From an uncultured Candidatus Poseidoniales archaeon (GTDB lineage: Archaea > Thermoplasmatota > Poseidoniia > Poseidoniales > Thalassarchaeaceae): DNA of 64,000 nucleotides. Position numbers and translations under genes: made by a program. This document shows, piece by piece, positions 2,261-46,169 of this stretch; the stretch's first letter is position 1, and every line of letters begins with the position of its first letter. The DNA lies in NCBI GenBank assembly GCA_963990035.1, contig CAXDMJ010000001.1, positions 10,622 to 74,621 on the forward strand, read 5' to 3'. The notes beneath the pieces were generated by a model that worked only from the letters and a program-made list of their open reading frames with translations, made no database searches and had not been told where the DNA came from.

Positions 2261-2269
2261 GTGATTACT

Positions 2270-28434: not shown

Positions 28435-30969
28435 TCATCTATGTCCCATGACAACTCGATGAACTGAATTTTGGACTTCTTTCATTCGATCATTAGCCCC
28501 TAATTCTCTAAATACAGATAATGCTTTTTGTAGATAATCCATTCTTTGTGAACGATCTGTCTCAACCTCTCCTAAACGTGCTAAGAGTTCTCCTTTCAGG
28601 AGACGGAAATCATTAGCGTCAGCCAGAGCAAGTCCCTCCAAATAATGTTCAGAAGCCTCTTCTTTCCTACCAGCATCACTAAGAACTTGGCCAAGTAACA
28701 TTTCAACCTCTACTGCGCTATGGGGATCTGCCTGTTCAGAGAGTATTTCTAAAGCACCAGAATAATGTAACATTGCTAAGTCATTATCTTTTATTCTAGC
28801 ATAATATCTACCCAACACTGCTCTTGCTCTTGCGTGTAAAGTATCTTGACCATTATTTTGGGTTTCATCATGAGCCAACATTGCATGATCTCTTGCACGA
28901 TCTAATTCACCCATTTCTAAAAAGGCAGAAGCAAGTCTGATTCGCGAATCACATAATTCAGGATTATTCTCAGATTCTAATAACTGTTCGACATTACTGT
29001 AAACTTCGAGTGCATGCCTAGTATCTCTACGACGACGAAATATATACCCCATATTATTATAAGATCTGGCAGCAGATACTGCATCTCTGGAACTTATTTG
29101 GATTTCAAGAGCCTGACGGTGTAACTCCAAAGCATCATCCATCGCACCCCTCTTAACTGCTATATCTGCACGAGATGAAAGTAATCTAGCAAGTTCCTTA
29201 TTCTGTTTATTTTTACGCGCAGTGGGTATTGCCAGATCATATTCTTTCACTGCATCATCCCATCTACCTTGGATAGATAAAATATCACCTCTGAGCTCTC
29301 TGACAATAACCCATGATTTCGAGTCAAAACCATCTCTATCTAACGCCCTTAGTATGCCTAATAATTCAGTATGACCTGCTTTGACTAATGTATGACCCTC
29401 GATTGATAATACCTTAGTTAATTCATCAATCTGATTAGAATTATGAAGGTGATGAATGAACTCTATCCTATCAGTAGCGCTAGTTTTGCGGTTTCTGTAC
29501 CAATTGACAGCATTACTATGCAACTCTTGACGTAAATTTTGCTCCATTGACAATACTAAAAATTCACGAACTAGGTCATGTACATCATAATTTTCGCTAT
29601 CAGCTTGTCGTGCTAGCCCTTTTTCAACTAGTTCATCTAAAAGATCAATGGCAGCATCTAGTTCACTGAGAGCATCTAAAGGCATAGGTTCTCTAAAAAC
29701 TGCAATTGCACCAAGAAGTCTTTTTTGAGATCCTGATAATCTACTAAAAATTTCTTTCTCAACAAATTTCTCTAAAGTCGAATGGAATGTACCCCCTACG
29801 CTACCTCGATTAATCAATTCTAATACCAATGGGTGGCCCCGTGATAGTGAATAAATATGAAGAAAATCAGGAGAAGTTATATCTGGCATAGATGAAAGTA
29901 TTTGTTTACTAGATTCTTTATCTAAACCATCTAGTGGCATTACTAATGTTAAGATTTTACCTTCAGAATCTTTCTCAGGAACTACCATTCTAAAAGATCT
30001 AGAAAACATTACTAAACCAACCTGGTCAAGATTAGGTATTTTCATGCAAATACCTCTCAATATTGTAATTAAAGTTTCATCACCGACTTTATGTAAATCA
30101 TCAATAACAATCAAACTAGGCGAATTAACTAAGCCTTTTATTATCAGATCAATTGCCACATTAGGTTGAGGGATTGAAGTTCCAGCTAAATAGTCGGATA
30201 AATCATTTGAACCCATTGTAGACTGCCATTCAGCAGTAGCTTCAAGGAATGACCTAGAACCTTCCCAATCTTGACAACGATGAAATAATAGATTTCTTTC
30301 ATGAGTAAATCTCTCTAGTATTTTACCTGCTAATGCAGTTTTGCCAATTCCAGCAATTCCGGGCACAAGTATAGATGAAGATCTTGCTTCGAGTAAGTTA
30401 ACCATATCATCAACTTCTTTCTGCCGACCATAGAATTTCCTAGTCCTTGGTAGATCATTAAATGAGGTTACTAACTGTTTTTCAATATGTTTAGATAGGT
30501 CTCGCTCGATTAATTCGGCTGAAAGTATCGATAAATCTACACTGCCATTATCATCAATATATCTTAAAATATCAACATGCCGAAGTGGTAAATCAGTTAA
30601 TTCTAATGCATTAACAAGTGATACGTTTTCTACACGACCATCTGAATATTTGAGACGTACTGGTTGGGTACTAACTTTATCCCAAATGCCATTAGCAACT
30701 TTAATTCCGTCATCAGTTAAAAAATATGCTTTTCTTTTTCTTGAGACACCTGTGACATGAGCCTGTTTTTCTATGAGAAGACCCTGCTCCCTCATACCTG
30801 AAATTGCTCTAGGGACATTAGAACGCGCTATTGCTACAGCATTAGCTATCCCCATTTGTGAAAGAGCGAAGGGGACTTCTACTCTTCCTGCATGTTCTAC
30901 ATAATCTCTGAGATGCAATAGAATCCTTTCTTGGACACCAGGACGAGGGGCCACTGACATGCTACTCAT
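28435..30969 (-). CDS. wHTH - STAND/AAA NTPase - TPR regulator
   Basis: The N-terminus is a MarR/wHTH-like 'ALSQMGIANAVAIARSNVPRAISGMREQGLLIEKQ'. Walker A is 'PGIAGIGKTALAG' (rc of ~30334-30363) and Walker B is 'LIVIDDLH'. The C-terminal ~330 aa holds repeated TPR-like A/L/Y helices. The track start at 30987 is TTG. The first ATG is at 30969. Confidence 0.7.
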   Translation of the reverse strand: MSSMSVAPRPGVQERILLHLRDYVEHAGRVEVPFALSQMGIANAVAIARSNVPRAISGMREQGLLIEKQAHVTGVSRKRKAYFLTDDGIKVANGIWDKVSTQPVRLKYSDGRVENVSLVNALELTDLPLRHVDILRYIDDNGSVDLSILSAELIERDLSKHIEKQLVTSFNDLPRTRKFYGRQKEVDDMVNLLEARSSSILVPGIAGIGKTALAGKILERFTHERNLLFHRCQDWEGSRSFLEATAEWQSTMGSNDLSDYLAGTSIPQPNVAIDLIIKGLVNSPSLIVIDDLHKVGDETLITILRGICMKIPNLDQVGLVMFSRSFRMVVPEKDSEGKILTLVMPLDGLDKESSKQILSSMPDITSPDFLHIYSLSRGHPLVLELINRGSVGGTFHSTLEKFVEKEIFSRLSGSQKRLLGAIAVFREPMPLDALSELDAAIDLLDELVEKGLARQADSENYDVHDLVREFLVLSMEQNLRQELHSNAVNWYRNRKTSATDRIEFIHHLHNSNQIDELTKVLSIEGHTLVKAGHTELLGILRALDRDGFDSKSWVIVRELRGDILSIQGRWDDAVKEYDLAIPTARKNKQNKELARLLSSRADIAVKRGAMDDALELHRQALEIQISSRDAVSAARSYNNMGYIFRRRRDTRHALEVYSNVEQLLESENNPELCDSRIRLASAFLEMGELDRARDHAMLAHDETQNNGQDTLHARARAVLGRYYARIKDNDLAMLHYSGALEILSEQADPHSAVEVEMLLGQVLSDAGRKEEASEHYLEGLALADANDFRLLKGELLARLGEVETDRSQRMDYLQKALSVFRELGANDRMKEVQNSVHRVVMGHR

Positions 30970-31029
30970 GGAGTCAGCAATCTGCAATACCTCATGAAGT
31001 TTCGCTGGTCAAGTTCGGCAATTAAGTCA

Positions 31030-34000
31030 TCAAGACCCATAATCTGGATCTTCTATCCAGTCATTAGATTCATCATCCCAAATCCATCCTTCTGATGTCT
31101 CGACATTTTCTGATGATTCATCATCACTTCCATCACCATCGTCTATTTCTACAAAGAAATATACAAATACACCACCCAGTAGACCAATAATTACGATTGA
31201 AATTATCGCAAGCATAACTGTAGATAATCCTTCATCAGACCCTCCTACTGAAATTTTAACATCACTTGAATAATCTGCTCCAACGTATCTAAATACTGGA
31301 GTCACAGGACCATCATCGAATCTAGATGATGGGATTCCTACGCTCCAAGTAGAATCAGAATTAACGATTGTACTATTTGCTGGAACTTGATTAATTAATG
31401 CAGTAACAGTTTTCCCAGGGAGACCTATTCCAGAGAATATAATACTTTCACCATTTTCAACAACTGTGATTTCAGGGGTATCAATTTGGAAAGTAACACC
31501 AACTACTGTGAAAGTAACAGGAATAGAAATTTCTCTTGAACCGAAAGGATCGGTTGCCATGAAGATTACATTTTCTAGAGTCCAAGAACTCATATTATTA
31601 TCATAAAAGAACATAGAAATTGGGTCATAAATTGCGAGGCCATCTTGACCTACATTAATTACTAATGCGAATTCATCATCATTAGTATCGGATGGATTGT
31701 CATAAACTGATAAAATAAGATTTTGTCCATCTAAATCTGAGAAGAAATCATTTAAATCAATTTCACCTTTAGTGCATCGATCCTGAGATTGTGAGGAAAT
31801 TTCACAATATAGGACTATATCTTTTATCCAGTTATCTGAATCAAAACTAGGTTGATTATTTCCTGCATCTGAAGGATTATCTGCAATGATATTTATTGTA
31901 CTCATATCACTAAAGTCATAACCATCATAAGATCTAATATCTATAGCATATTCAAAGTCATGTTGAAGAATAGTAGGGTCCCATTCGGTAGACCAAGCAC
32001 CATTTACTTCGAAATCTGTCACGGACTGTTGATGGACAATTATTCCACCATTGTAAATATCTCTTACTGTTATATCTACTCTCGATACTGAACCATCATT
32101 ATCTCTTGCAACGCCCTGTATTGTTGTATCAGATACAGAAACTCTTTCACCATCTTGAGGAGATATTATATTAATGAAAGGTATTGAATTAGAGTTGTCA
32201 ATGGTTAGAGTCATTGTAACTGCATCACATTCATCGATAACACTCAAACAAAAGTCTGAATCAGAAGCCCAAATTGTAAATATATATTCAGCTGATACCC
32301 TTGGTTGACCACTGAAATCCCATGTCCATGACCAATCTGCTCCGCCAGAGGTTGGAGTAGTACCTTCAAAATTAGGTCCACTAATATAGAAATAAACCTC
32401 TCCTATATCTTTACTACAATCAAGAGGACATCCATATTGATCATACGCAGTTCCTTCGAACGTCACTGAACCATCTGACCAAGTTGAAGCATCACTAGGA
32501 GATGATACTGTAATTACAGGAGGCGCAGCATTTAGCTTAATTGTTCTAGAGATAATTGGACTATAGTCAATACCATCAAAAGATCTGAATTCGAAAGTAT
32601 AATCTGTTTCTTGGTAATTCGTCATATCAAAAGAGTAGTACCAAGAATTGAATGGATGATTGAATCGAGTAACTGATTCAGGTTCGGCTCCACTATCATC
32701 AATGCCAAGGCCTGCAGAAGCCCATTCACTTGTGAATGGATCACGCACCTCTATTGAATGAATATATCCTTTTTGATCCCATTGTGCTAGAGAATCAGTT
32801 GCATAAAACCCTGCTAGTTGTCCATCATGCGCGGAACCAGTGAAGTTGACTATTTTTCTAAAGGAATGACCATTTTCTTGAATTACAGATACTGAAGGTC
32901 CCGAATTAAATAGATTAATAGTATCTTGATACGTCACATCTTGGACTACAAAATCACTACGATCATAACCAAATCCAAAACGGTATGCAGTATAGTAGTA
33001 ACGAGATAACTCACGTGTTCCTAGAGTGTAATCACAGTCTAAATCGTTGTTATCAATAGTTAAATCGCCATCATTATCAATACCATCAGAACATGAATCT
33101 TCATATTCATCATCAGCAAAACCATCAGGATTGTCACCTCCGGCTAATCCTCTGAAGTCCAGATGTGAATCAGATGCTAAAGCAAACCATGGAGTATAAC
33201 CATTTTGATCAGTATATAATGAGTAAAGATCATTGCCGAGCGCATCTTCAATAAGCACATTTGCATTTTCAACCTTCACACCATCAACCAACGTTTGGAA
33301 TCTAGCCATTTCAGCTCTTCGGACCTGAACTGCATACTGAGTGGGTTGAGATTTAATAAAAATCTTCGAAGTATCAACATTAGAAAGATTAGCAAATGTA
33401 AACACAGTGGAGTTATTATCCATACTCAATGCTAATGGGAAATTAATTGGTGTTAGATTCTCACAACTTACACATTCCGAAATTGCAGTAGGTATAATTG
33501 CACCTTGGAATCCATTTGCTGGCCATGCTTCTTGATCTGGCCAATCGAGAATAACAGGGAACTCGCCAGGAGGTGCACTAGGGATAAATTCAGATTGAAC
33601 AGTTACAGAAGATTTAGTCACATTGTAAGCTGTTTCAATACCGTTCCAAGTATTCAGAGAAAAGAAACCTAGAGATCCATATTGTTGAGTATTAGCAAAA
33701 CCACTATCATAATTACGTATTACTGCACCAGTTCCGGGTGTATTGAACAAATTTCTTTGGACATCCATGAGGCCTCCAATTGCTCTAATTCCATCAGCAT
33801 CTCCACCCATACTAAATTCATTATCATAAAGTGTCATTCCTGATCGGAATAGACTGACTGCAGGGCAAGTATACTCACCATCCCAATATTTGAAGCTAGA
33901 ACAGGTCCCTGGAGAATCAACATTGACGGTATTGTTTGAAAAATGAAGTCTAGATGCAGATGGTGCAGGCCCTGAACTACTTAATTCACCAACTTGTACA

Positions 34001-35232
34001 GGAGTCTTAGCTGTATTCGTGATTGTATTATATTCGGCAATTACATCGAAAGATCCAGTTAGCCACAAACCATTCCATCCACCTATTGGACCTATCTCAT
34101 TATTGTGAATATAGGCTTTACTTGATTGTACTGTGATACCTGAACGTTCACCAACTCCAGAAATCTCGTTATTATGTAATTCTACATTAGCACCATCATA
34201 AACAGTTATTCCAGAACCTGTATCAGTTGTAATTTCATTATTTCCAACCTCAATAGTAAATTCGACGCCTTGGATTGCTTTAATTCCATTAATATCGACT
34301 CCATTACAATTAACATTGATATCAGAATTCGTAATAAGACCTGATGAACTTGTTAGAGAAAATCCATAATCACCAGTATTAACAGTAGCATCATTAATTT
34401 CGATAAAAGTTCCTTCGGCCCAAAGTGTTGGACGACCTCCATCATTATTACCACAACCATTATCTGTTCCAATAAAAAATGGTGAATTCATGACAAGTGG
34501 GGATATCTGAGTCCCAGAGCCGTAAATTTGAACGGCAGAGCCCCCCACTCCACTCTTACCATCATTCCCTGCGACATATGTGCCACCCTCAAATATTGGT
34601 TGTGCTAAATTTGTAGTTAATACACTACTTGTATTTATGTTTGTGAAACGAATTTGGTTTAATGTTGGTGATGCTCCATCGATAACCATAGCACCATATC
34701 GCCATCGGTTAATTGAATCAATATAGTAGGGGATCCCCCAGGCATCATCAAATGTAATGTGCCTAAAACCTGTTTCAGATAGATCAATAGAACTACGAAT
34801 TAACATTCCCTCAAAACAAGATGCATCCTCAACTTGAATCTCTTGGGTTCCTTGCGTCATACCTTTACATTCACCGATTTCACTAGAATTTGAAGGATCA
34901 GTCCATCTAAGAGTGATTTTATTGGCTAAACTAGCGTCACCAGATGCACCGCATGAAGATACACCTGCACATATATTACCTCGGACATCTAGATATGTCC
35001 CATTAGGAAAAATTACAGTAGTACCTGGATTAATAATTAGTTTAGCACCAGAAGCAATAGTTACATCTCCAGTTAACTGATGGGTACCAGACCATGTTTC
35101 AGATGTAGTAATAGTTCCAGAGGTTGTTTCATTGTTAGCCATCACTGGAGTTGCGGGACCCACTAAAGCAATAAGAACACTAGATAACATTAGGAAAACG
35201 AGGAACGAACTTGTTGCACGACGCTTGGACAT
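31030..35232 (-). CDS. 1400-aa type-I surface protein: signal peptide, right-handed parallel beta-helix (PbH1) region, Cys/Asp-rich Ca-binding-like motif, Ig-like modules, TM anchor, acidic tail
   Basis: PbH1 turns are 'VELHNNEISGVGERSGITVQSSKAYIHNNEIGP'. 'CSDGIDNDGDLTIDNNDLDCDY' is encoded at rc of ~33028-33111. Ig-like modules include 'INIISPQDGERVSVSDTTIQGVARDNDGSVSRVDITV'. The TM helix is 'VMLAIISIVIIGLLGGVFVYFFV' and the tail is 'EIDDGDGSDDESSENVETSEGWIWDDESNDWIEDPDYGS'. Confidence 0.7.
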   Translation of the reverse strand: MSKRRATSSFLVFLMLSSVLIALVGPATPVMANNETTSGTITTSETWSGTHQLTGDVTIASGAKLIINPGTTVIFPNGTYLDVRGNICAGVSSCGASGDASLANKITLRWTDPSNSSEIGECKGMTQGTQEIQVEDASCFEGMLIRSSIDLSETGFRHITFDDAWGIPYYIDSINRWRYGAMVIDGASPTLNQIRFTNINTSSVLTTNLAQPIFEGGTYVAGNDGKSGVGGSAVQIYGSGTQISPLVMNSPFFIGTDNGCGNNDGGRPTLWAEGTFIEINDATVNTGDYGFSLTSSSGLITNSDINVNCNGVDINGIKAIQGVEFTIEVGNNEITTDTGSGITVYDGANVELHNNEISGVGERSGITVQSSKAYIHNNEIGPIGGWNGLWLTGSFDVIAEYNTITNTAKTPVQVGELSSSGPAPSASRLHFSNNTVNVDSPGTCSSFKYWDGEYTCPAVSLFRSGMTLYDNEFSMGGDADGIRAIGGLMDVQRNLFNTPGTGAVIRNYDSGFANTQQYGSLGFFSLNTWNGIETAYNVTKSSVTVQSEFIPSAPPGEFPVILDWPDQEAWPANGFQGAIIPTAISECVSCENLTPINFPLALSMDNNSTVFTFANLSNVDTSKIFIKSQPTQYAVQVRRAEMARFQTLVDGVKVENANVLIEDALGNDLYSLYTDQNGYTPWFALASDSHLDFRGLAGGDNPDGFADDEYEDSCSDGIDNDGDLTIDNNDLDCDYTLGTRELSRYYYTAYRFGFGYDRSDFVVQDVTYQDTINLFNSGPSVSVIQENGHSFRKIVNFTGSAHDGQLAGFYATDSLAQWDQKGYIHSIEVRDPFTSEWASAGLGIDDSGAEPESVTRFNHPFNSWYYSFDMTNYQETDYTFEFRSFDGIDYSPIISRTIKLNAAPPVITVSSPSDASTWSDGSVTFEGTAYDQYGCPLDCSKDIGEVYFYISGPNFEGTTPTSGGADWSWTWDFSGQPRVSAEYIFTIWASDSDFCLSVIDECDAVTMTLTIDNSNSIPFINIISPQDGERVSVSDTTIQGVARDNDGSVSRVDITVRDIYNGGIIVHQQSVTDFEVNGAWSTEWDPTILQHDFEYAIDIRSYDGYDFSDMSTINIIADNPSDAGNNQPSFDSDNWIKDIVLYCEISSQSQDRCTKGEIDLNDFFSDLDGQNLILSVYDNPSDTNDDEFALVINVGQDGLAIYDPISMFFYDNNMSSWTLENVIFMATDPFGSREISIPVTFTVVGVTFQIDTPEITVVENGESIIFSGIGLPGKTVTALINQVPANSTIVNSDSTWSVGIPSSRFDDGPVTPVFRYVGADYSSDVKISVGGSDEGLSTVMLAIISIVIIGLLGGVFVYFFVEIDDGDGSDDESSENVETSEGWIWDDESNDWIEDPDYGS

Positions 35233-35309
35233 GTTTTACCGTATTAGAATATGGATTTAACCAATTTGGGGGGACGTGCAGAATTAATAGAGGAATAAAA
35301 TGCATTAAT

Positions 35310-36572
35310 CTATGCAATATTAAACGAAAAGGCCACTTCTTCGGACCATTTGACTACATCGAGACTACCATATCCAGAATGAGAATTATGAGAATTACTT
35401 CCAAAATTACCTCGGTCACAAGAACTTGCGAGTGATTGTTTCACCATACGCATTTCTTCTTCATCGATGATACCGTCAGAGCCTGCAATCTCATCTCCAA
35501 ATTGTTGAATTATAAGGGCTAATGCACCAGTTACAAAAACAGTAGAGGCACTAGTCCCTGAAGAATATGCATAAGGAGATGAAAGACTATTCGAAGCTGT
35601 GGAGAATATATTTACACCAGGTGCGATAACTTCTGGTTTTTGATTAGGGTACTCTCTATTTTCATCTGAAGATAAATCTGTAAGAGAGCCATAAGCACTA
35701 CTCCCCCAAACATACCCTGCTTTATTGTGAGCGCCTACTGAAATCACACCTGCAACGCTAGATGGTTGAGATACATCTTTCACATCCGGTTTAAGACCTG
35801 TGTTACCTGCAGCAGCTACAACAAATATCCCGGCATCAAGTGCTTCTTGAACGGCGATATTAGTTTGAGAATTAGATGATAGGTCAGAAGGTTCGCCTCC
35901 AAGACTCAATGAGATTATATCCACTCTTTGAGTTATTCTGCACCATCTGATAGCCTGAGCGACACGATCACCAGAACCAGAAGTCCCTTCATCATCAAGT
36001 GCCAAAGCAACAGAAAGTTCAACCATAGGAGCTGCACCCTTGAATGTACCATTAGATATCAATATACCAGTCATTAGTGTACCATGAGAATTATCCCCTA
36101 TATCTCTAATCAAGTCATGTTTACTCTCCACAAAATCTCTAAACCCAGATAATTCATGATGTGCAAAGTTAGGATGAGTCATATCAATTCCAGTGTCAAC
36201 AATACAAACATGTACTCCTTCGCCAAGAAATCCTTGTGATTGAATTTGTCTAATCCCAGTTGTTTCATCATATGCCCATTCAGAATCAGGTAAAATAGGT
36301 ATTAGTAATGCATTCACCCATGGCCAGCTCGCAATTAATAGAATTGTAAGTATCGAGAAAATAATTGCACCATTGGGCCAGAGGTACTCCTTCATAGGAC
36401 CAATAGGCCACCTTAATTCGCGAGCTTCTTGGTCACTAAGGCCATAGTCAGCCCCTGGATAACCCGGAGCAGAAGAGTCAATGGCAGTCAGAATCCTATG
36501 ATCTTCCGGCTCAGGTAACAAATCTAAATTTTCCAGAGGTCTCAATGATCCACCCCAATTAGAATGGAGCAC
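35310..36572 (-). CDS. Membrane-anchored subtilisin-like serine protease (S8)
   Basis: The catalytic triad motifs are 'CIVDTGID' (Asp), 'SHGTLMTG' (His) and 'SGTSASTVFVTGA' (Ser). The N-terminal TM helix is 'IIFSILTILLIASWPWV'. The track start at 36572 is GTG and overlaps the upstream gene by 14 nt. An alternative ATG at 36395 (MKEYLWP...) is possible. Confidence 0.85.
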   Translation of the reverse strand: MLHSNWGGSLRPLENLDLLPEPEDHRILTAIDSSAPGYPGADYGLSDQEARELRWPIGPMKEYLWPNGAIIFSILTILLIASWPWVNALLIPILPDSEWAYDETTGIRQIQSQGFLGEGVHVCIVDTGIDMTHPNFAHHELSGFRDFVESKHDLIRDIGDNSHGTLMTGILISNGTFKGAAPMVELSVALALDDEGTSGSGDRVAQAIRWCRITQRVDIISLSLGGEPSDLSSNSQTNIAVQEALDAGIFVVAAAGNTGLKPDVKDVSQPSSVAGVISVGAHNKAGYVWGSSAYGSLTDLSSDENREYPNQKPEVIAPGVNIFSTASNSLSSPYAYSSGTSASTVFVTGALALIIQQFGDEIAGSDGIIDEEEMRMVKQSLASSCDRGNFGSNSHNSHSGYGSLDVVKWSEEVAFSFNIA

Positions 36573-39500
36573 CTGGACGTCTTGAACGGCCTTTAGTCAA
36601 GAATGCAAATATTCCAACTAAAATTACTATTAGAATTGGAGCAATAATATCTGTACCCTCATCATCATTTGCTGCAGGAGAACGTACATCGATATTCCAA
36701 GAACCTATGAAAATTCCGTCTGATACATGCCAAGAGTCATCATTAATATTATCCTCACCGAATATACTTGAATTAATATCCATTACCAAGTAATATGGTC
36801 CAACTGTGATGTCAGATAGATCAAACAAGAAACTGAACTGCATAGATGATTCTGCACCTATATCCATAGTTGTAACTGTACTAACTGATGTAGGGTTATT
36901 ACAAGAAACATCATTACAAAGAGTCGCATTCAGTTGAACTTGTTTAGCTTCAACCAAACCAGTATTAGATACTGTTGCAATATATGTAATCTGACCACCT
37001 GCCTCAGGTTCACCTCCACCCAATGCTTGGGCTCCTTCTATCTTCAGAATAGGTTCTGAACTTCGTATATTAATTTCGATAGTTTCATATGAATTACCCG
37101 CCTTATCTGTTGCTGTAACATATATAGAAAACTCCTCATTAGATGAGGTTTCAGGGGCTACAACAGTAACACTGTGAGTTGTACTAACGAATCCACCAAG
37201 AGTATGAGAGGTTGGTCCTGTTCTACTCCATCCTTCAGGTAACTCTGAGTCATCAAATTCGAATTCATACTTATCATCGCCATTTCCAGCATTAGTAAAT
37301 TCAATTGGCACTATAATTAGTTCACCAGGAGATACACCATAGACTTCTTTCATAGGATTAGTCAACTCAAAACCATGTAATTGAGGAACTCTCACTGTTA
37401 ATTCGTGAGTATCCTGGTATCCATCTTGTGTAGAAATTAAAATTGTAATCATATGGCCATCATCGAAAGCATGAGCAACTGATTGATTAGCAGGAGTTAC
37501 TCGTATGTTCAAATCATCGAATGTTTGAGCATTATCAAGACCAACTTCAAACTGAGTAGAAGTATTCCAACCTGAGCCATTATTGAATTCTAATGTCCAT
37601 TCTGTACTGTCAGATCCTGAGACTATACCTCCAACTGTATAAAGATCATACGATTCATGTCCGAGATATTCAACTCCAAGAGTGAATTCAACTGGTACAA
37701 AGCCATCTGTTTCATTAACTACAAGATTTACATCATTAGTAGAACCAATATAACTCTCATGACCTGATGTAAGATTTAGGGTCTGAATAATAATCTCATG
37801 ATTTGAAACTCTATTGTATAATAGAGATAATACTGGAGATTCTTGACCAGAATAAACATCAGTCCCTCTACCTGCCATATATTCCATTGTAATCCCTCTC
37901 TGTTCAACATCAAAGTCACTTGAAAATTCAACATTACCATTAGGTAAAAGTAAATTCAAAGAGCCATCCGTTTCAACATCTTGTATCCACTTCATTCCAA
38001 ATCCAATATCAATGACTATATTGCCATCAACAATTTCTCCAAGATTACGAGATACACCATCATAGTCTAACCATTCAGTATTAACATCAAGAATACCTCC
38101 TCTTGTAAGTTCCATATCTAGATTACCACCATCAGTTACATCTACATTTATTAGACCCATTACAACCAAATCTTGACTTGGAACGCTAGCACTAACAATC
38201 CAAAGACCGGGCTCTAATTGAGCAGACCAGTTACCTAACCAACCTTCATCACCATAGAATAATAGTGGAGTCACAGTATCTCGTACAATACCTTCTGTAG
38301 GTATTATTGTAAGAACTACATCACCTTCTGGAATACTAGTAATCCCAAGATCATAAGAAATATTACCTGAAACATGAATTAGCCCCGCAGTTAGTTCAAG
38401 AAGAACATCATTAGGCACATCTGAAACAGATATACTTTGTTGAATACTTTCAAATCCATCATAAGAAGTATTTATTTCCCAAATTGTATTTGCAGGTACG
38501 AATAGCTCCCAATCACCATTATTACCTGATTCAATTGTATTATCAGGTAAGATTTCATTAGAGAATAACATAGTTACATCGGAAATACCTTCACCAACAT
38601 TGGATGCATCATTATCATTCAAGTCCCAATACACAGTACCTGAAATTGCAACATATAGATTTGCAATTAAATCGTAATGATTATCATCACTTATATCAAT
38701 AGATATAGGATACTCCTCAACTAGCCATCTATTACCATTTTCAGTGTAATTTAAAGACACTATCCATTCTCCAGTTACTAAACTAATATCAGTAAATCCA
38801 CTAGAGTTTGTAGCTTCGATACTGAATGAACCTAGGCCTTCTGCTGACTCGAGTAACAAACTTATACCATTTAACGAATCATTACTACCATCTTCAGATA
38901 ACGTAAAGGAAACTTCTGCAAGTTCACTGGTTGATAATACCAAGTCAGTAGCCGAATTCTCAGATGATACTGAAACTAATTCCCTAAGGCCCTCATGGAT
39001 ATCATTGTTCATTGTATCAGTAGTTACTATCCAATCACCTTCAGAAATAAAACCAATTATATTACCATCAATGTCTGTTGTTCGTGAAAGAATCCATCCA
39101 TTCTCAACATTAGTTAATCTTACTAATTGCTCAGATAGAACACCCCCACTTTCGTTTGTGAAAGACATATTAACTCGCCATTCAGGATCGAATCCTATTG
39201 TACGAGAAATTGTGGAAGACTCCATACCAACTTGGAAATTTACATCTCCAGTAAGGATACGTGTTCCGAATGTTTCACCAGAATTAGCATCTGAAATATC
39301 AACTGATATTCGATAAATCCCTGGTTCTACTGAAACCTCGGCATGACCTGTACCATTCCATTCTGAATCATCAATATTTATTTGGTAATCTAAGCCATTA
39401 ATCATTGATATTAAACTGAAATTATAGTTTACAGACGTTCCGTTAGAAAGATTATTATCTCCTGAGTGATCTAAGAAGAAGTCAACCAATAACAATGAAT

Positions 39501-42500
39501 CATCAGGATAGATAATAACTTCAACAGTATTATTAGAATTGTCTACATTAGTCACATTGGTTCCAGAAATAAATTCATCTGAATCAACAGAAAATTGCCA
39601 ATTACCCTTTGGAAGAACCATGTCAAATAATCCACCTTCATTAGATTGGGCACGCCACTGGACATCATAATCAAGATTATCAGCAATTACTGTTACTGAT
39701 TCCCAACCACCAATATCTCCATTGAACAAATTATCAGCTCTATTGATACTAATAACACCAGTAATCGACTGTCCTGGACGAGCAACCATAGTCACCTCAT
39801 CCATACCTGGTTCTACGGTAAATTGAGTACCATTAACTAATGTTAATGAGATTCCTAATTGAGTAATTGCATCAACTGTAGAACCTTCTGGTAGAACTAG
39901 AGAAAATGACCCATTCAAAGAAGTTCGAACTGTTGTGCTGAAACCATCCCAATAGAAATCTATTGGGACATCTTCCAGTATTTTTTCTTCATCAATAGAA
40001 AGATCGGTTGAATTCTCATTATAATATAATGTTCCAGTGACTACTTGACTAGTCTGGAATTCGTATATTGCAGAGAAATCATCGATTCCTACTTCAATCT
40101 CTACCCATAATTGCTCAGTATCAGAAAGAGTATGACTCAATATCCAGACACCTGGGATAAGTTCAGCATAGTAATCATTTGTCATTGAGTTAAATTCAAC
40201 ATTAACCATTGAACCTGATCCATTCTTAAGACTTAATGTCAGATCTAAATCATTTACAGATGTATCACTACCATTTTCATCTCTAATCAATGAGAATGTT
40301 AAATCAGTAGTTAGAGGGATAACAGACGGGAATACAAATGAAGATTCTTCATTTGCATCAAATATGTGCTCGCTGTAAACTTCAGAGAAACCATCGTTAT
40401 CCATATCAATTTCTATAATATATGTACCAGGCATAATAGGTCCATAATCCAATTTAGAATCAAATAATTCCCCATCTTCCCATAAAAGATTAGGGGAAAT
40501 TAGACATGGAGCATATTTCACAACACTACAGTCATCAATTGCGTCAGAAGCTAAAGAATCATTAGTTCTAAGAATAATTGAAGCCATCAAAGGATTCCCT
40601 GATTGATCAGTTAACTCACCAGTTATCGAACCTCCATTAATATCTATTTCAGTAATCGAATTAATAGGTTGTTGAGGTATTGAATATCCATCATTGATTT
40701 CAACACGTGTTCCATCACTGAAAATTATCGCTACATCGTAAGAACCCGGTATTGCATCTACTATGTGGAATGTACCTGGTTGGACCATTGTTCCACTAAA
40801 TACACCCGCGCCAGTAAATGATCCTGTACCATTTATACTACCATAACTGCTCAATGTTGTGTCTGAAGTATCAGTAGAAAATACTCCCGAACCCAGTAGA
40901 GTTGCTTGAACAAGTTTCTGTGTGAAAGATGCTACTCCATCAGCAGTAAAACGACCTGTAGCGTTAACTATACCATTTAAGAGATATTTACCATCTGATT
41001 GTATACATAAACTAGAGTTTTCAGGCATTGTTTCATTGACATCACAATCCATTAATTCAGTGACATCATCATTTATAATACCATCAATAACCCCTTTACC
41101 AGCAAACTCACCATCACCATTTAAACTATGATTGTTGAATACTGTTTGTGTATAATTACCTGTGAAGTCAGTAATTTTAGCCGTTGTAGCTGTAATCACA
41201 TTACCTTCACCAGTGAATGTCACTTCTCCAGTACCTTCAAATCTTAGATTATCTCCTTCGATAGAACCATTGGATGTTGAGAGTAAATATGGATCTATGT
41301 TGATCAAATCCCATGAGGGGGATAATTCAACAGTTGCATCGTCTAAAGAATCGCCAGAGAATATTTCTGAACCCGCCCATACTAATCGACCAGTAGATGA
41401 TGCTGGCTCTACAGTAATTGGCACCGATATAACGGATTCTCCATTACTATGACCATCTGTTCCAGAAATATTAACAATAGTTTCAGATAACCAAGTAGAT
41501 CCTGAAACATTACCTAGAATCCCTGTGATTGGATTGAGATTCCTAACACCAGGTGAAACATCTTCGAAAAGGTCACCAAGAGATTGACCTACATTAGAAG
41601 TCATGATTAAAGTTCTTGCAGAATCTAAGTCCGAATCACCATAGAATGCAGAGACTCGAATTTTACCTGCAGGAGCAATGAAACTATATTCTCCATTTTC
41701 ATCAGCATCTGCGGTACCAATAGGAATCCAGTAGGTTCTCTGATCTCTATCAGTCACATGACCATCAATTTCTATCTCGTCACCACTAAATGCATCACGC
41801 TCGATGAGGATTTTTGCATTTGGAATAGGTCCTAAACCATCTAATTCAACAGTTCCTTCAATAGTAGCACCACTATAGTATTTCATTACCTTGACTTGAG
41901 TATTAGCACTTCCAATACCAAGATTAGAACAATCTTCGTCTAATTGAGTATCATTATCATCTGTTTCACAGTCTGGGCTATACCAATTAGATAAAACCAT
42001 ATGATTCATCATTGCACCAGGAAGAGGGTATGCATTCTCTAGGTATGAACCAGGAGCACCTGAAGTATAGAAATGAGGAGCAGGTTGTTCTGCATCACCT
42101 GGAAGACCCAAGGTTGAGGTTCCATATCCAACATAAATTCGTGCAACCATTGTTTCAAAGAATTCTGGCTGATGTTGATAATCAATATCCACCATTCTAA
42201 TCATCTCATTAACATCTGTTAATGCACCTGATTGTTGGCGTATTACATCATTAAGATACTCTGCTTCATATTCTGCAGAACTACGTGGAATTATAGGTCC
42301 ATCACCTCTCTGGGTTTCATAAATTGATGAGATATATGTTTCAGTATCTAATCCAGATAAGGAGGTAGGAGCATGGAAAATACCAGTAGTTTGTCCCTGG
42401 TGATAACTATAATCCTCATAGTAATTTCCACCAAGTGGGTATAGGCGATTATCTACAGCGAAATATCTAATTTCATTATTCCTTGAGACAGTATCTCCTA

Positions 42501-45500
42501 ATGGACCCTCATAATTCTGAACCTCATATACTAATTCCGTTGAAATATCGTGATATAAGTCATTAATACCATTTGAATCAAATATTTCTAACAGTAGTGC
42601 TCTACTTAATGCAAGTTTTGCATTAACACGATGGAGACCAGAAGATACATCCTCAAAATCATCAATTAAATCAGGAGTATACCTGTATCCTGCGATATCA
42701 TAGTATTGAATTACTAATTCACCATTAGAATCTCTATCTAATTCAGAAACTGAATTTCTTATAGAATTATATGCATCTTTTGCAGAATCAAAGTCAGCAT
42801 AGGTATCTAATTCTTCACCATCATCCAGAATAACCCATGTCTGGATATCGCTTGGGATACCATCTACATTAAGTTGATAACCAGTTAATAATTCATATTT
42901 TGAATCAGCTGCAACAACAGACATTGAACGACTTAGGACTAGATTTGAATCATCCTTTCCAAGTTCCATTATTGTATTAAATTCATTATATTGCTCCTCA
43001 GTCATATGACCATCAAGAAGTAAGTTTGTGAAAGCAGGAGTGAATTGACCAGAATTAGATCTTCTATCTCCCTGCGCTAATGTAGTAATGAATAATGAGA
43101 GTGTATCTTCTTGACTTGCTGACAATAACATTGCACCGCTATTTGGAATTCCAGACTGGAAGTTATCTGCAACAGTTGGATGCTCACCTTGAGCAAGGGC
43201 TTGGAAACCATAATCCCACCACGAAACAAAGGCAGGACGTTCAGAGAAACTAACATCAGAATCTTGTTCAGATAGCCACTCATATGCCATATTCCACGAA
43301 CCTGAGTTGAAACCTGGGCCAAAAGTACCCATATACCATAAATCACTATTTGCATCATAATTCTCACTATTCAATAAAGATAAACCAAGTATTTCTTGTC
43401 GGAAAACATCAGGAGTAATGTCATGAATAGTTTGATCAACATTAGAAGCAGATTGTTCCCCTCTTGGGATACCTGAGTCAATACCATAGGTCATATGCTG
43501 AGAACAAACTAACATTAGAACAAGTATAACCGCAGGAATTCCTGGATGCCTCTTAGATGCAGACCAGTTAGCCCAAAAACGTGACCTAGGAGTTGCAATA
43601 CCAGATTTCCTCCACTCTTTACTAAATCCAGAGAAATTAGCATAATTCCACATCATAGCAATTCCTATTCCACCTACTACTGAAATTGCAGGTGTCGCAT
43701 TAAATATGAATCGCCCAGCGGACCAAGCCATGTATATTGCAATAAGGACCCATAATCCAAGAAGAATATGACTTTGTTTTTCTTTACGTGCACCACGCCA
43801 TACTAACATCACAGAAACAATGATTGCTATCAAAGAAACTATAGGGCCGTATGATGCGAAAAGAACGCCTCTACTAGGTGCCTGTGCTTCACCAATAGTA
43901 CCGAATATTTTATTCTTGGAGAAATAAAATCCTCCTGTGAAGAGTGTATCCCAACCAGCGTAAAGACCCGCTTCCTGTAGTAGGTAAAGTGTAGCAAGGA
44001 TACCTGACATTAATACTACAGTACTTCCCAGTACCAATAACCAAGGCCTATCTCGATATGATGATGCAATCCAGCCCAATGCAAAGGTAAAGCCAATTAT
44101 GTAGAACATTGGTTGGAAACCACTTGCATCGAACAATAAATTAAGACCAGGCCAACAATAGAATGGCAATGGTATTACAAATGCAGTAAGCATCATCTGT
44201 AATGATGCTGCTGTAATAGGCAAACTATCTCTGCGCCTAAACATATTGAAGAATATTTGGAATGCAAATGCAATAAATAAGATGCCAGGTCCGTAAACAA
44301 ATCCTTTCCAACCCAGAGCAACAACAGCAAATGAAACTCCAGATAAAGTAGCATTAGACATCACCGTAGGATTCCTTAACCACATTTCTCTTATTCCTGC
44401 AACTATATACAATGGATTCAAACTTGGAGTGGTGAATAATCTCTTGTTAGTAATTTCATCCATAGCCTTAACCCAATAATAGAATGCAATTGCTAAGAAT
44501 AGCATAGCAAAAGCGTCGTGATCAGCAAGACCAAAGGTAGAGTGGCTGATATGACCAGGCATAAGGGCAATTAACCAAGCAGCAACTATACCTGCCATAT
44601 TACTATGTAACTTTCTAGCAAGTCCAGCGATAGGGAGGACAATTAATGCACCAAATACAGCGGGTAAAGATGCAACACTCCACCAAACAGATTCTTCCAT
44701 AGCCATACCAGATAACCATGAAAGAAGGATTCCTCCTAAGGCAAGAGACCAAGAGAAAAGAGGAGGACGCGGATTGATTGCTATCATAGGATAAGCTCTA
44801 TCTGAGTCTATAATTAGATGGCTTCTTTCAGCCACTACGTAATCTACAATTCTCTTCATATACCAAGGGTCTGAACCTCCTGACATATCCCAGAGACCAG
44901 TCCCAGCAGCATTCATAGCAGGGAGAATATTCCATCCAGTTCTAACTGCTAAAGCAATGAAAAGAGCGAAACCGACCATTATGCTATATGAATGTTGATT
45001 CCACCATTTGCGGAAATCAGAATGATCTCTGCGAGGAGATATATCGCCAAGACGTCCACGACCAGCGACCATCATGGCACCAACATTTAGCCAGAATACT
45101 AAGAAAAACCATGTCAGTATACCTGCAGTATCATTTCCATTGAGTGGTGAGAATGGTAAATCATTACCAATCTCTTGCAAGTGAGCTATAGTATAAATTA
45201 TCCAGTTTAACGCAACTACAATTCCAATTACATGCCATCTCTCTGAATTACAGAAAGATACGAATAGAATTACTATTGTTGCAAACATAGCCCAAACTGA
45301 GCCAAGATAATGGTGATTGTTGTAAGATTCAATATCTTCAAGAGAACCGAGCCAAAGTAATGGTATCAGATTAACAAGGAATACCATACCAGCAGTAATT
45401 AAGCCAGCATTAGGCATAATTGAGGGGATATCTTTGAACCAAGACCCAATACCAGGAGATACAAATCGGCCTCTCATTGCTAGTGTCACAAGAATACCCA

Positions 45501-46050
45501 AAGCGATTGAAGCAGCCCATGATGCAAAGAAAATTGATCCAATAGAACTTCTAACTACATCGATTAACTCATCAGGATTACCGCTCCAAGTTGTATCATC
45601 TAAAGTGTATCGGGTTGCGAAAGAAATTGCAAGATGAAAACCTATTACAACTGAAAGTAATATTGATGATTCTTCATTTCTTTTGTGAGATGCTAAAATT
45701 AGAGATGCTACAAACATAAACCCGAAAGTGAAACCTTGCAAAGGTAAAGCAAATCCTAATTCAACAATTAGCAATGAAAATACTATGACGAATATAGAAA
45801 TTATTGAATTACGAGATTTAGAATCAAGTGCTGATTCTCCATATGTGTTCAAAATCCTACCAAGAAACGCGGCAAAAGCTGCGATAACTGGCAGGATTAA
45901 GAGGTCTACATATCCGTTATTCTCTATTCCAGCATTCGCGACATAGTCAGTTCCTAAGAAGAGCACCATCAAAGTTGCTAGCACCGCAGGAACTGGTAGT
46001 AAATCTTCATTAGAAAATACACCAACAGTCGCATCATTATCATCGTTCAT
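36559..46050 (-). CDS. aglB: Giant (3163 aa) AglB/STT3-family oligosaccharyltransferase fusion: N-terminal extra polytopic module + STT3 core + ~2100-aa beta-sandwich array + C-terminal TM anchor
   Basis: STT3 hallmarks appear in the expected order: 'GGSDPWYMKRIVDY' (EL1 acidic motif, rc of ~44850-44880), 'IDSDRAYP', 'GLADHDAF', 'SWWDYGFQ' (rc of 43207-43221) and 'TVADNFQSG'. The C-terminus is 'IIAPILIVILVGIFAFLTKGRSRRPGAPF'. GGTGAT lies 5 nt upstream of the ATG. Confidence 0.8.
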   Translation of the reverse strand: MNDDNDATVGVFSNEDLLPVPAVLATLMVLFLGTDYVANAGIENNGYVDLLILPVIAAFAAFLGRILNTYGESALDSKSRNSIISIFVIVFSLLIVELGFALPLQGFTFGFMFVASLILASHKRNEESSILLSVVIGFHLAISFATRYTLDDTTWSGNPDELIDVVRSSIGSIFFASWAASIALGILVTLAMRGRFVSPGIGSWFKDIPSIMPNAGLITAGMVFLVNLIPLLWLGSLEDIESYNNHHYLGSVWAMFATIVILFVSFCNSERWHVIGIVVALNWIIYTIAHLQEIGNDLPFSPLNGNDTAGILTWFFLVFWLNVGAMMVAGRGRLGDISPRRDHSDFRKWWNQHSYSIMVGFALFIALAVRTGWNILPAMNAAGTGLWDMSGGSDPWYMKRIVDYVVAERSHLIIDSDRAYPMIAINPRPPLFSWSLALGGILLSWLSGMAMEESVWWSVASLPAVFGALIVLPIAGLARKLHSNMAGIVAAWLIALMPGHISHSTFGLADHDAFAMLFLAIAFYYWVKAMDEITNKRLFTTPSLNPLYIVAGIREMWLRNPTVMSNATLSGVSFAVVALGWKGFVYGPGILFIAFAFQIFFNMFRRRDSLPITAASLQMMLTAFVIPLPFYCWPGLNLLFDASGFQPMFYIIGFTFALGWIASSYRDRPWLLVLGSTVVLMSGILATLYLLQEAGLYAGWDTLFTGGFYFSKNKIFGTIGEAQAPSRGVLFASYGPIVSLIAIIVSVMLVWRGARKEKQSHILLGLWVLIAIYMAWSAGRFIFNATPAISVVGGIGIAMMWNYANFSGFSKEWRKSGIATPRSRFWANWSASKRHPGIPAVILVLMLVCSQHMTYGIDSGIPRGEQSASNVDQTIHDITPDVFRQEILGLSLLNSENYDANSDLWYMGTFGPGFNSGSWNMAYEWLSEQDSDVSFSERPAFVSWWDYGFQALAQGEHPTVADNFQSGIPNSGAMLLSASQEDTLSLFITTLAQGDRRSNSGQFTPAFTNLLLDGHMTEEQYNEFNTIMELGKDDSNLVLSRSMSVVAADSKYELLTGYQLNVDGIPSDIQTWVILDDGEELDTYADFDSAKDAYNSIRNSVSELDRDSNGELVIQYYDIAGYRYTPDLIDDFEDVSSGLHRVNAKLALSRALLLEIFDSNGINDLYHDISTELVYEVQNYEGPLGDTVSRNNEIRYFAVDNRLYPLGGNYYEDYSYHQGQTTGIFHAPTSLSGLDTETYISSIYETQRGDGPIIPRSSAEYEAEYLNDVIRQQSGALTDVNEMIRMVDIDYQHQPEFFETMVARIYVGYGTSTLGLPGDAEQPAPHFYTSGAPGSYLENAYPLPGAMMNHMVLSNWYSPDCETDDNDTQLDEDCSNLGIGSANTQVKVMKYYSGATIEGTVELDGLGPIPNAKILIERDAFSGDEIEIDGHVTDRDQRTYWIPIGTADADENGEYSFIAPAGKIRVSAFYGDSDLDSARTLIMTSNVGQSLGDLFEDVSPGVRNLNPITGILGNVSGSTWLSETIVNISGTDGHSNGESVISVPITVEPASSTGRLVWAGSEIFSGDSLDDATVELSPSWDLINIDPYLLSTSNGSIEGDNLRFEGTGEVTFTGEGNVITATTAKITDFTGNYTQTVFNNHSLNGDGEFAGKGVIDGIINDDVTELMDCDVNETMPENSSLCIQSDGKYLLNGIVNATGRFTADGVASFTQKLVQATLLGSGVFSTDTSDTTLSSYGSINGTGSFTGAGVFSGTMVQPGTFHIVDAIPGSYDVAIIFSDGTRVEINDGYSIPQQPINSITEIDINGGSITGELTDQSGNPLMASIILRTNDSLASDAIDDCSVVKYAPCLISPNLLWEDGELFDSKLDYGPIMPGTYIIEIDMDNDGFSEVYSEHIFDANEESSFVFPSVIPLTTDLTFSLIRDENGSDTSVNDLDLTLSLKNGSGSMVNVEFNSMTNDYYAELIPGVWILSHTLSDTEQLWVEIEVGIDDFSAIYEFQTSQVVTGTLYYNENSTDLSIDEEKILEDVPIDFYWDGFSTTVRTSLNGSFSLVLPEGSTVDAITQLGISLTLVNGTQFTVEPGMDEVTMVARPGQSITGVISINRADNLFNGDIGGWESVTVIADNLDYDVQWRAQSNEGGLFDMVLPKGNWQFSVDSDEFISGTNVTNVDNSNNTVEVIIYPDDSLLLVDFFLDHSGDNNLSNGTSVNYNFSLISMINGLDYQINIDDSEWNGTGHAEVSVEPGIYRISVDISDANSGETFGTRILTGDVNFQVGMESSTISRTIGFDPEWRVNMSFTNESGGVLSEQLVRLTNVENGWILSRTTDIDGNIIGFISEGDWIVTTDTMNNDIHEGLRELVSVSSENSATDLVLSTSELAEVSFTLSEDGSNDSLNGISLLLESAEGLGSFSIEATNSSGFTDISLVTGEWIVSLNYTENGNRWLVEEYPISIDISDDNHYDLIANLYVAISGTVYWDLNDNDASNVGEGISDVTMLFSNEILPDNTIESGNNGDWELFVPANTIWEINTSYDGFESIQQSISVSDVPNDVLLELTAGLIHVSGNISYDLGITSIPEGDVVLTIIPTEGIVRDTVTPLLFYGDEGWLGNWSAQLEPGLWIVSASVPSQDLVVMGLINVDVTDGGNLDMELTRGGILDVNTEWLDYDGVSRNLGEIVDGNIVIDIGFGMKWIQDVETDGSLNLLLPNGNVEFSSDFDVEQRGITMEYMAGRGTDVYSGQESPVLSLLYNRVSNHEIIIQTLNLTSGHESYIGSTNDVNLVVNETDGFVPVEFTLGVEYLGHESYDLYTVGGIVSGSDSTEWTLEFNNGSGWNTSTQFEVGLDNAQTFDDLNIRVTPANQSVAHAFDDGHMITILISTQDGYQDTHELTVRVPQLHGFELTNPMKEVYGVSPGELIIVPIEFTNAGNGDDKYEFEFDDSELPEGWSRTGPTSHTLGGFVSTTHSVTVVAPETSSNEEFSIYVTATDKAGNSYETIEINIRSSEPILKIEGAQALGGGEPEAGGQITYIATVSNTGLVEAKQVQLNATLCNDVSCNNPTSVSTVTTMDIGAESSMQFSFLFDLSDITVGPYYLVMDINSSIFGEDNINDDSWHVSDGIFIGSWNIDVRSPAANDDEGTDIIAPILIVILVGIFAFLTKGRSRRPGAPF
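43207..43221 (-). other. WWDYG catalytic motif of STT3/AglB
   Basis: The plus strand 'accataatcccacca' is the rc of TGG TGG GAT TAT GGT, encoding W944-W-D-Y-G of the 3163-aa ORF. Confidence 0.85.
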
Positions 46051-46055
46051 TATTC

Positions 46056-46061
46056 ATCACC
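46056..46061 (-). promoter_or_regulatory. Shine-Dalgarno-like GGTGAT upstream of the giant aglB ATG
   Basis: The rc of 46051-46063 reads ATGGTGATGAATA, followed by ATG at 46050. Confidence 0.35.
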
Positions 46062-46169
46062 ATATTGTCGAGCCTACAGGCCCAGAGTTTGCGCGAAAAT
46101 TGGGGATGTTATAACCGTTAGTGGGTTAACTATTTTGAGAGGGCAGCAAATTAACCTAAAATATTAGTC

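Follow-up and report, generated by a model that had tools for sequence, protein, structure and literature searches.

The question raised by this locus is whether a run of large genes with envelope-related products in an uncultured marine archaeon is a flexible island, exchanged as a cassette, or a stable part of the genome, and whether the neighbourhood of these genes reflects a shared function. The genes are located on the minus strand at positions 28435-46050 of a 64,000-nt stretch of DNA (hereafter the window) that belongs to an archaeon of the Poseidoniales (Marine Group IIb). In the direction of reading, they encode a giant oligosaccharyltransferase AglB (36559-46050, 3163 aa), an S8 subtilase (35310-36572, 420 aa), a beta-helix surface protein (31030-35232, 1400 aa) and a regulator of the STAND type (28435-30987, 850 aa), all given here as mechanical open reading frames (ORFs). 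The ORF listing reproduces exactly the four minus-strand genes on which the original prediction was built, and its statement that no opposing gene interrupts them holds as well, the plus-strand ORFs in the block being short (96-103 aa) and nested in aglB only. The four genes are indeed co-directional, but the run begins before aglB, with purD and the CDP-archaeol synthase gene (CarS) upstream on the same strand. Marine Group II (MGII) archaea rank among the most abundant archaea of the plankton and are uncultured, and we know of no experimental knowledge of their cell envelope. With moderate confidence, we read the block as a vertically inherited, order-wide piece of the Poseidoniales core genome with cell-envelope functions, and not as a mobile or hypervariable cassette.

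Gene order was compared across relatives. A scan with one genome per species found four relatives, namely Ca. Thalassarchaeaceae and Ca. Thalassarchaeum metagenome-assembled genomes (MAGs), a Poseidoniales single-cell genome and a 'Methanobacteriota archaeon' MAG, and the gene order was the same in all of them. A metagenome scan seeded with the S8 alignment led to 32 loci, with which the window proteins were compared by tblastn. All four genes were found in order in each of the independent loci with enough flank (33/33), down to ~38% AglB identity, and 8 further loci cut by contig ends were consistent with this order. Taking purD into account, purD-AglB-S8-beta-helix-STAND had the same order and orientation in every contig that extended far enough, without exception, including lineages with S8 identities of 54-58% (L028 and L030) and 41-42% (L031 and L032). 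The contexts of divergent AglB homologs showed the same order, and the proteins encoded there, where named, were assigned to Candidatus Poseidoniales. A 29% S8 match (L036) was rejected as an unrelated subtilase. The five-gene core stays even where its flanks change: the downstream genes for a metallo-beta-lactamase (MBL) fold hydrolase and a 1,900-aa protein are replaced by others in L031, L032 and L045-L047, and the upstream CarS is inverted or missing in L045 and L046. Comparative synteny thus supports the conservation of the four-gene set as a unit, also in clades with different flanks.

The degree of sequence conservation in the block points in the same direction. At the distance of L037-L039, conservation within the block is highest for the STAND regulator (71-73% identity with the window), followed by the AglB core (63-68%), while the neighbouring MBL, purD and CarS genes reach 61-63%, 60-62% and 50-62%, respectively. 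The AglB middle region (53-60%), the beta-helix protein (54-55%) and S8 (53-55%) come next, and fast divergence in the block is limited to the AglB N-terminal extension (36-42%) and the AglB distal array (33-34%). The low conservation relative to the flanks that had been expected of an island is therefore not observed, as the core regions fall in the range of the housekeeping neighbours and STAND exceeds purD. Over hundreds of clusters of these proteins, full-length AglB forms are near-constant in size (3,141-3,340 aa), and the beta-helix orthologs are mostly ~1,400-1,490 aa long.

These results bear directly on the view of the original prediction, in which the block is a flexible, hypervariable envelope island whose cassettes are swapped against phage recognition. 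The AglB distal array and N-terminal extension evolve fast, as they might under diversifying pressure at exposed surfaces, and this would fit such a view. However, the block was never replaced or absent in the 33 loci, the lengths of its proteins are near-constant, and its core regions are conserved at the housekeeping level. The GC content is flat across the window (0.32-0.40), tRNA and Rfam scans of the 64 kb gave no match, and neither a mobile-element signature nor an integrase was found in the window. On both sides, the block is surrounded by archaeal housekeeping genes, among which genes for large acidic secreted proteins are scattered; besides purD and CarS, the housekeeping genes include archease, several aminoacyl-tRNA synthetases, RtcB, RNase HII, DnaJ, ribosomal protein S15 and archaeosine tRNA-guanine transglycosylase. 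Invariant synteny together with housekeeping-level conservation therefore refutes the flexible-island reading on its own terms, and we consider it extremely improbable.

The domain architecture proposed for the four proteins is confirmed by Pfam, with weak matches for the winged helix-turn-helix (wHTH) of STAND. In AglB, residues 392-783 match the STT3 domain (PF02516) with 51.7 bits (cut-off 24.5), and weaker matches to AglB_core, CarboxypepD_reg and DUF11 were found. In the alignment with the Archaeoglobus fulgidus AglB structure 3waj (E 3.6e-9), residue 6 of 3waj pairs with query residue 344, and AglB residues 1-343 are therefore an added transmembrane (TM)-rich extension. This N-terminal extension (residues 1-~340) has ~9 TM helices according to a TM scan, is specific to Poseidoniales and gave no match in a Pfam search. 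It is followed by the STT3/AglB membrane core and catalytic domain (~344-1000), a conserved accessory region (1100-1800) and a fast-evolving array of immunoglobulin (Ig)-like domains (1800-3130), identified as CarboxypepD_reg and DUF11/CARDB by Pfam on segments. The C-terminal 2,000 residues as a whole carry CarboxypepD_reg and DUF11/CARDB signatures, and the chain ends, according to a hydropathy scan, in a C-terminal TM helix (3133-3151) and a basic tail with the terminal sequence RRPGAPF.

The catalytic motifs of this AglB, GGSDPWY, DHD, TIGE and WWDYG, are all invariant in 12 orthologs. SWWDYG at residues 943-948 is aligned with WWDYG of 3waj, GGSDPWY (391-397) pairs with GGNDPWY, and DHD (510-512) pairs with NDHH; TIGE (718-721), of the TIxE/SVSE type, is the putative EL5 motif. 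The hydropathy scan finds only some of the core helices of the expected 13-TM topology. A model of residues 1-1200 computed with AlphaFold2 (AF2) from a 12-sequence alignment has a mean predicted local distance difference test (pLDDT) score of 52, being confident only in the N-terminal helices and at 980-1170, with values <50 over residues 496-979; Foldseek with this model returned no match at E <= 0.001. Against NCBIfam TIGR04154 (archaeosortase A system-associated STT3), the protein scores 149.8 bits, with a cut-off of 450, indicating a homolog that is not a member of that family. Judged by its sequence, AglB is an oligosaccharyltransferase with its catalytic motifs all intact. It carries all the motifs of an active enzyme, and transfer of a lipid-linked glycan to the Asn of N-X-S/T sites is its predicted activity.

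Giant AglBs are not confined to Poseidoniales. An exhaustive search of 1.84 billion representative proteins with the AglB core recovered ~10 Poseidoniales-type representatives (3,146-3,228 aa, core from residue ~330-390), together with a large second tier at 27-38% identity, mostly 2,000-2,775 aa long and with the core starting from residue ~5-130, whose members, where named, belong to Thermoplasmata/Thermoplasmatota archaea. On these alignments, the fusion of AglB with an array is old and widespread in Thermoplasmata, and the N-terminal extension is Poseidoniales-specific. At two of the outgroup loci, other very large genes were noticed beside or near the giant AglB, one for an 8,356-aa surface protein (L042) and one for a 4,565-aa transglutaminase/PKD protein (L043). 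We found no description of giant AglBs or of this cluster in the papers searched for AglB in Marine Group II or Thermoplasmata, and public databases list the block proteins under the names 'hypothetical', 'Stt3' or 'TPR repeat protein'.

Whether the block is also one transcription unit was approached through its spacers, with putative transcription signals called from sequence conservation at the consensus level. The spacer between purD and aglB (46051-46169, minus strand), 113-119 nt long in most lineages, reads as an aglB promoter and 5' leader, with elements conserved across divergent loci. It contains a TATA-like TTATAA at 46109-46114 with a conserved CCAC(T/G)AAC just before it, and the conserved CCAC(T/G)AAC-GTTA(T/A)AACA element, which resembles a B recognition element and TATA box, is located ~64 nt before the aglB ATG. 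A Shine-Dalgarno (SD) sequence GGTGAT precedes aglB at 46056-46061, and GGTGAT or GAGGGA is found across lineages. The leader also contains an inverted repeat, (G/C)AGCC-N4-GGCT(C/G), at 46070-46083 on the minus strand, 20-33 nt before the ATG. This repeat is kept in 19/20 Poseidoniales leaders, with one covarying pair (G-C to C-G), and could be a small hairpin in the 5' untranslated region or an operator just downstream of the predicted transcription start.

At the other end of aglB, the S8 start falls, in alignments of orthologs, on a conserved TTG or ATG that corresponds to window residue 10 (position 36545), after the SD-like GGGGTGGATCA. The corrected S8 gene is thus 35310-36545 on the minus strand (~411 aa), and the junction with aglB is 13 nt long (36546-36558, minus), with GGGGTGGATCA (GGTG at 36551-36554) directly 5' of the TTG. 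The spacings of -14, 77 and 42 nt given earlier for the block stand as mechanical ORF values, but after start correction the first becomes ~+13 nt and the last 60 nt; the -14 overlap between aglB and S8 is probably an artefact of the first-start rule. Across lineages, the junction is short and variable, with an SD-like sequence always before the homologous start, and in the window it leaves no room for a promoter. The ~13-nt gap, the SD-led internal start and the lack of promoter room therefore suggest co-transcription, and we infer that aglB and S8 form a bicistronic operon. The TTG start itself (36543-36545) is conserved in most MGIIb lineages, including L002, L003, L028, L038 and L039, and the start is ATG in the most divergent clades; the TTG may set a low translation ratio of S8 relative to AglB.

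The S8 protein matches PF00082 (Peptidase_S8) over its full length (E 1.8e-39), and its triad of D126 (DTG), H163 (HGT) and S341 (GTS) is invariant in orthologs, with the catalytic domain on the extracellular side. The membrane anchors proposed for S8 and the beta-helix protein both appear in the hydropathy scan, in S8 as a single N-terminal TM helix at ORF residues 64-82 with positive charges on its N-side. The preceding cytoplasmic tail of ~50 aa is strongly conserved, with the pattern (L/F)(D/E)L(L/M)PEP(D/E)(D/E)..ILTAID. Tk-SP and subtilisins are the best PDB matches (~1e-23, from query residue ~100), and the best NCBIfam match is mycosin (E 1e-26), at 93.9 bits far under the cut-off of 278.75. 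A prodomain of the inhibitor/chaperone type of secreted subtilisins was not matched in Pfam, and ~40 residues separate the TM helix from the catalytic Asp. A study of coastal metatranscriptomes (PMC9723583) reports that an oligosaccharyltransferase gene and a subtilase gene of Poseidoniales are highly or differentially transcribed, but does not identify them as these loci.

The beta-helix protein, matched by the Pfam families Beta_helix and Big_7, consists of a signal peptide, a right-handed beta-helix (~30-560), an acidic calcium-binding-like linker and several Ig-like (Big_7) domains, followed by the C-terminal TM helix at 1339-1357 and an acidic cytoplasmic tail that ends in the conserved GW(I/L)W(D/N)x5W(I/V)xDP(D/N)Y. 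Its AF2 model (mean pLDDT 83.9) is all-beta, with short regular strands over about the first 530 model residues, consistent with a right-handed beta-helix, and Ig-like sandwiches thereafter. Foldseek of this model gave generic tandem Ig/FN3, adhesin, macroglobulin and S-layer-like matches only, and a PDB sequence search with the protein gave no match. The family comprises 206 matches, all from MGII and of similar length throughout, and no NCBIfam match to a sorting signal of the PGF-CTERM/archaeosortase type was found in the protein. The protein had been called sequon-rich, which does not hold: its composition predicts 16.8 N-X-S/T sites and it has 13 (z = -1.0), a density that is usual in the window. 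On the other hand, the sequon Asn is conserved (in >=10/12 divergent orthologs) at 77% of the sites compared with 33% for other Asn (p = 0.007). Because the sequon Asn is more conserved than other Asn, N-glycosylation is predicted, and the protein is likely an N-glycoprotein at a few selected sites and hence a substrate of AglB. Separately, an acidic Cys-containing stretch, EYEDSCSDGIDNDGDLTIDNNDLDCD, at residues ~705-760 (window ~32950-33120) is nearly invariant across the order. This stretch has a weak match to the NCBIfam 'acidic double-disulfide repeat' and lies at about the place where the AF2 model has its one extended segment of low confidence (model residues 660-710).

The spacer between S8 and the beta-helix gene (35233-35309, minus strand) differs from the aglB-S8 junction in holding signals of its own. 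A T-run, TTTTATT, follows the S8 stop, and a TATA-like TTAAAT at 35255-35260 is placed 23-28 nt before the beta-helix ATG, the geometry of a leaderless transcript. A TTAAAT, ATAAAT or TTATAT box is found 23-30 nt before this ATG in every lineage aligned, and the beta-helix gene is the only one of the 33 window genes with such a hexamer near -28. These signals suggest a separate, leaderless transcript for the beta-helix gene, driven by a TATA-like box of its own. The spacer between the beta-helix and STAND genes contains the conserved CACCACCGAAACTTCAT and no clear TATA box. The conserved box before the beta-helix ATG and the T-runs after S8 argue against a single transcription unit of four genes, and the most likely architecture, as read from these signals, has at least two units, [aglB-S8] and [beta-helix], with [STAND] as a possible further one, and is not a four-gene operon.

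The STAND regulator most likely starts from the ATG at 30969, which gives a gene of 844 aa (28435-30969, minus strand) separated from the beta-helix gene by 60 and not 42 nt. Pfam matches TPR_12 with 64.3 bits (cut-off 30.1) in 4 stretches and AAA_16 with 32.0 bits, just under the cut-off of 32.6, along with NB-ARC-like matches. The P-loop of the nucleotide-binding oligomerisation domain (NOD) is intact, with Walker A GIAGIGKT and Walker B LIVIDDLH. The best solved relative is PDB 6mfv, the TPR-sensor STAND protein PH0952 (E 3.8e-28, residues 171-497), and the TPR region of AfsR is also matched (E 6.6e-14). All of the best 120 among the 799 homologs come from MGII; they are 804-851 aa long, most often by far 838-851 aa, and one ortholog is named a PadR-family regulator in one source.

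Downstream of STAND, the MBL-fold hydrolase gene (27613-28434, plus strand) is convergent to it, with abutting stops and 0 nt between the ORFs. Loci of the MGIIb type keep the gene in synteny, and divergent clades lack it beside STAND. Orthologs have precomputed matches to Pfam Anti-Pycsar_Apyc1, and the window protein has weak matches to RNase Z, Avs1a (NCBIfam E 4.5e-4, PADLOC E 1.8e-3) and LmuA. AVAST type 1 systems contain STAND NTPases with TPR sensors and MBL partners, and STAND-TPR and the abutting hydrolase could accordingly be viewed as an Avs-like antiviral pair unrelated to the envelope genes, a view to which the weak Avs1a matches and the Anti-Pycsar_Apyc1 matches of the orthologs lend themselves. 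However, all matches to defence models in PADLOC and NCBIfam are far under the curated cut-offs, the N-terminus of STAND is a putative wHTH and not a nuclease or other effector domain, and the MBL partner is absent beside STAND in the divergent clades. Moreover, STAND is single-copy, order-wide and more conserved than purD, whereas defence genes are patchy. We therefore attach almost no credence to a defence role of this pair.

Combining the above features, a model can be proposed for the four products. Transcription of aglB and S8 would start from the TATA-like box ~64 nt upstream of aglB, and S8 would be translated from the SD-led TTG just past the aglB stop. On the outer face of the membrane, AglB would N-glycosylate proteins that are exported, with the adjacent beta-helix/Ig protein as one of them, and the type-II-anchored, prodomain-less subtilase would act there too, on proteins of the envelope or the extracellular space. 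The wHTH-NOD-TPR protein would serve as an ATP-dependent transcriptional switch of the MalT/PH0952 kind. A shared envelope function and functional coupling of the four genes may be drawn from this arrangement, because the beta-helix sequons are conserved and conserved cytoplasmic tail motifs occur on all three membrane proteins. More speculatively, S8 might mature envelope proteins, and STAND might regulate the block genes, perhaps by sensing the conserved cytoplasmic tails.

Several observations weigh against such a functional unit. First, purD is exactly as syntenic as the four block genes, and therefore conserved order alone cannot prove shared function, since slow rearrangement could explain it. 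Second, the 64-kb window contains neither a glycosyltransferase or flippase gene nor any other agl gene, so that the block is not the 'self-contained' module it had been taken for. Third, the four outgroup Thermoplasmata giant-AglB loci (L041-L044) have no adjacent S8, beta-helix or STAND genes, and the linkage is therefore a Poseidoniales innovation and not a requirement of giant AglB; these outgroup contexts came from the AglB representative search, the STAND and beta-helix homolog lists being filled by MGII orthologs. In addition, the aglB-leader inverted repeat occurs once in the window and was rejected as an operator shared by the block genes, and the promoters, leaders and terminators proposed for the block are inferred at the consensus level. 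The putative N-terminal wHTH of STAND is matched by HTH_Crp_2 (E 1.6e-4) and MarR_2 (E 3.8e-3), both under the Pfam cut-offs. Finally, S8 could instead be a nutritional exoprotease, as MGII assimilate protein.

The main rival to a shared envelope function is accordingly neutral collinearity, in which the stretch merely rearranges slowly and its genes have independent functions, AglB being the general housekeeping glycosylase, S8 a nutritional exoprotease, the beta-helix protein an adhesin and STAND unrelated. The strict synteny of purD agrees with it, as does the synteny that CarS, MBL and the 1,900-aa gene keep in much of the order, and so do the predicted promoter of the beta-helix gene itself, the unrelated neighbours of the outgroup giant AglBs and the discussion of subtilases as protein-degrading enzymes in MGII metatranscriptomes (PMC9723583). 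Independent functions would, however, leave unexplained the ~13-nt aglB-S8 gap with its SD-led start and no promoter room, the fact that the block outlasts its flanks in divergent clades, and the presence of three membrane proteins with conserved cytoplasmic motifs beside a gene for a cytoplasmic TPR sensor. On this balance, neutral collinearity appears possible but rather doubtful.

A bolder reading can also be built on the cytoplasmic motifs. The oligosaccharyltransferase would itself contribute much to the structure of the envelope, with its 2,000-aa Ig-like array, held to the membrane at either end, as part of the outer coat, and STAND would be a sensor of envelope status, the TPR region reading the cytoplasmic motifs of the three membrane proteins and their binding switching transcription via ATP-dependent oligomerisation. 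The motifs concerned are DLLPEPxD...ILTAID of the S8 N-tail, GWLWDx5WxxDPNY of the beta-helix C-tail and RRPGAPF at the AglB C-end. We regard this as unlikely, but if true, it would couple glycosylation, proteolytic processing and surface-protein supply.

For the preferred reading of the block as a vertically inherited core-genome piece, the locus pins down an order-wide gene set that very probably builds part of the MGII envelope. It also points to a probable operon of aglB and the subtilase gene, to a defined N-glycoprotein candidate whose sites are conserved, and to a candidate regulator. Envelope genes are here core and not flexible, and the fast evolution expected of an exposed surface is seen only in the AglB distal array.

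Further genes of the window deserve mention. Two of them, at 21717-27437 (minus, 1906 aa) and 50529-53576 (minus, 1015 aa), encode large, very acidic secreted proteins with bacterial TSP3-type calcium-binding repeats, each with a TATA-like hexamer ~46-55 nt upstream and a strong Shine-Dalgarno sequence. In many lineages, a syntenic counterpart of the 1906-aa gene (~1903 aa) follows downstream of the block, and either of the two proteins could be another envelope component. In a single 334-aa ORF at 19782-20786 (minus), a pyroglutamyl peptidase (Peptidase_C15) domain at the N-terminus is joined to a NUDIX hydrolase domain at the C-terminus, an unusual fusion.

Compared with known systems, the arrangement is lineage-specific and conserved, and its parts are of known kinds, namely AglB, S8 subtilases, STAND regulators and anchored surface glycoproteins. 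The window AglB shares with A. fulgidus AglB-L (3waj/3wak) the STT3 core, acidic motifs (GGSDPWY, DHD) in the first extracellular loops, and TIGE and WWDYG in the external catalytic domain. It differs in its size of 3,163 aa, compared with ~870 aa in A. fulgidus (875-residue chains in 3waj), in the ~340 N-terminal residues (~9 TM helices) placed before TM1, and in ~2,000 additional C-terminal residues of Ig-like domains with a second TM anchor. With the other giant AglBs of Thermoplasmata (2,000-2,800 aa), which are annotated as 'carboxypeptidase regulatory-like domain-containing protein' or 'Stt3', it has in common an AglB core (30-37% identity) and long C-terminal CarboxypepD_reg/CARDB arrays, whereas those proteins do not have the 340-aa N-terminal extension.

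The S8 protein recalls envelope-associated archaeal subtilases and mycosins. The STABLE protease is bound to the tetrabrachion S-layer of Staphylothermus marinus, pyrolysin is likewise an envelope-associated archaeal subtilase, and mycosins are membrane-anchored proteases of bacterial type VII secretion. The likeness consists in a subtilisin-fold protease at the cell surface beside large surface glycoproteins; the window protein differs in its single N-terminal TM anchor with a conserved ~50-aa cytoplasmic tail and in having no detected prodomain. The beta-helix protein resembles archaeal surface glycoproteins and S-layer proteins with a C-terminal anchor, such as Haloferax volcanii csg (7ptp, rank 23 among the Foldseek matches of its model) in its signal peptide, tandem Ig-like domains, conserved sequons and C-terminal TM helix, a likeness that does not imply lattice formation. 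In contrast to the csg type, its N-terminal half is a right-handed beta-helix, it has no PGF-CTERM/archaeosortase match, and a conserved acidic cytoplasmic tail follows the TM helix. Lastly, the STAND regulator shares with MalT, PH0952 and the SARP/AfsR regulators a P-loop NOD followed by a TPR sensor. The DNA-binding domain of MalT is a C-terminal LuxR-type HTH and that of SARPs is of the OmpR type, whereas the effector of the window protein is a putative N-terminal wHTH that, on weak matches, is of the MarR/Crp/PadR type.

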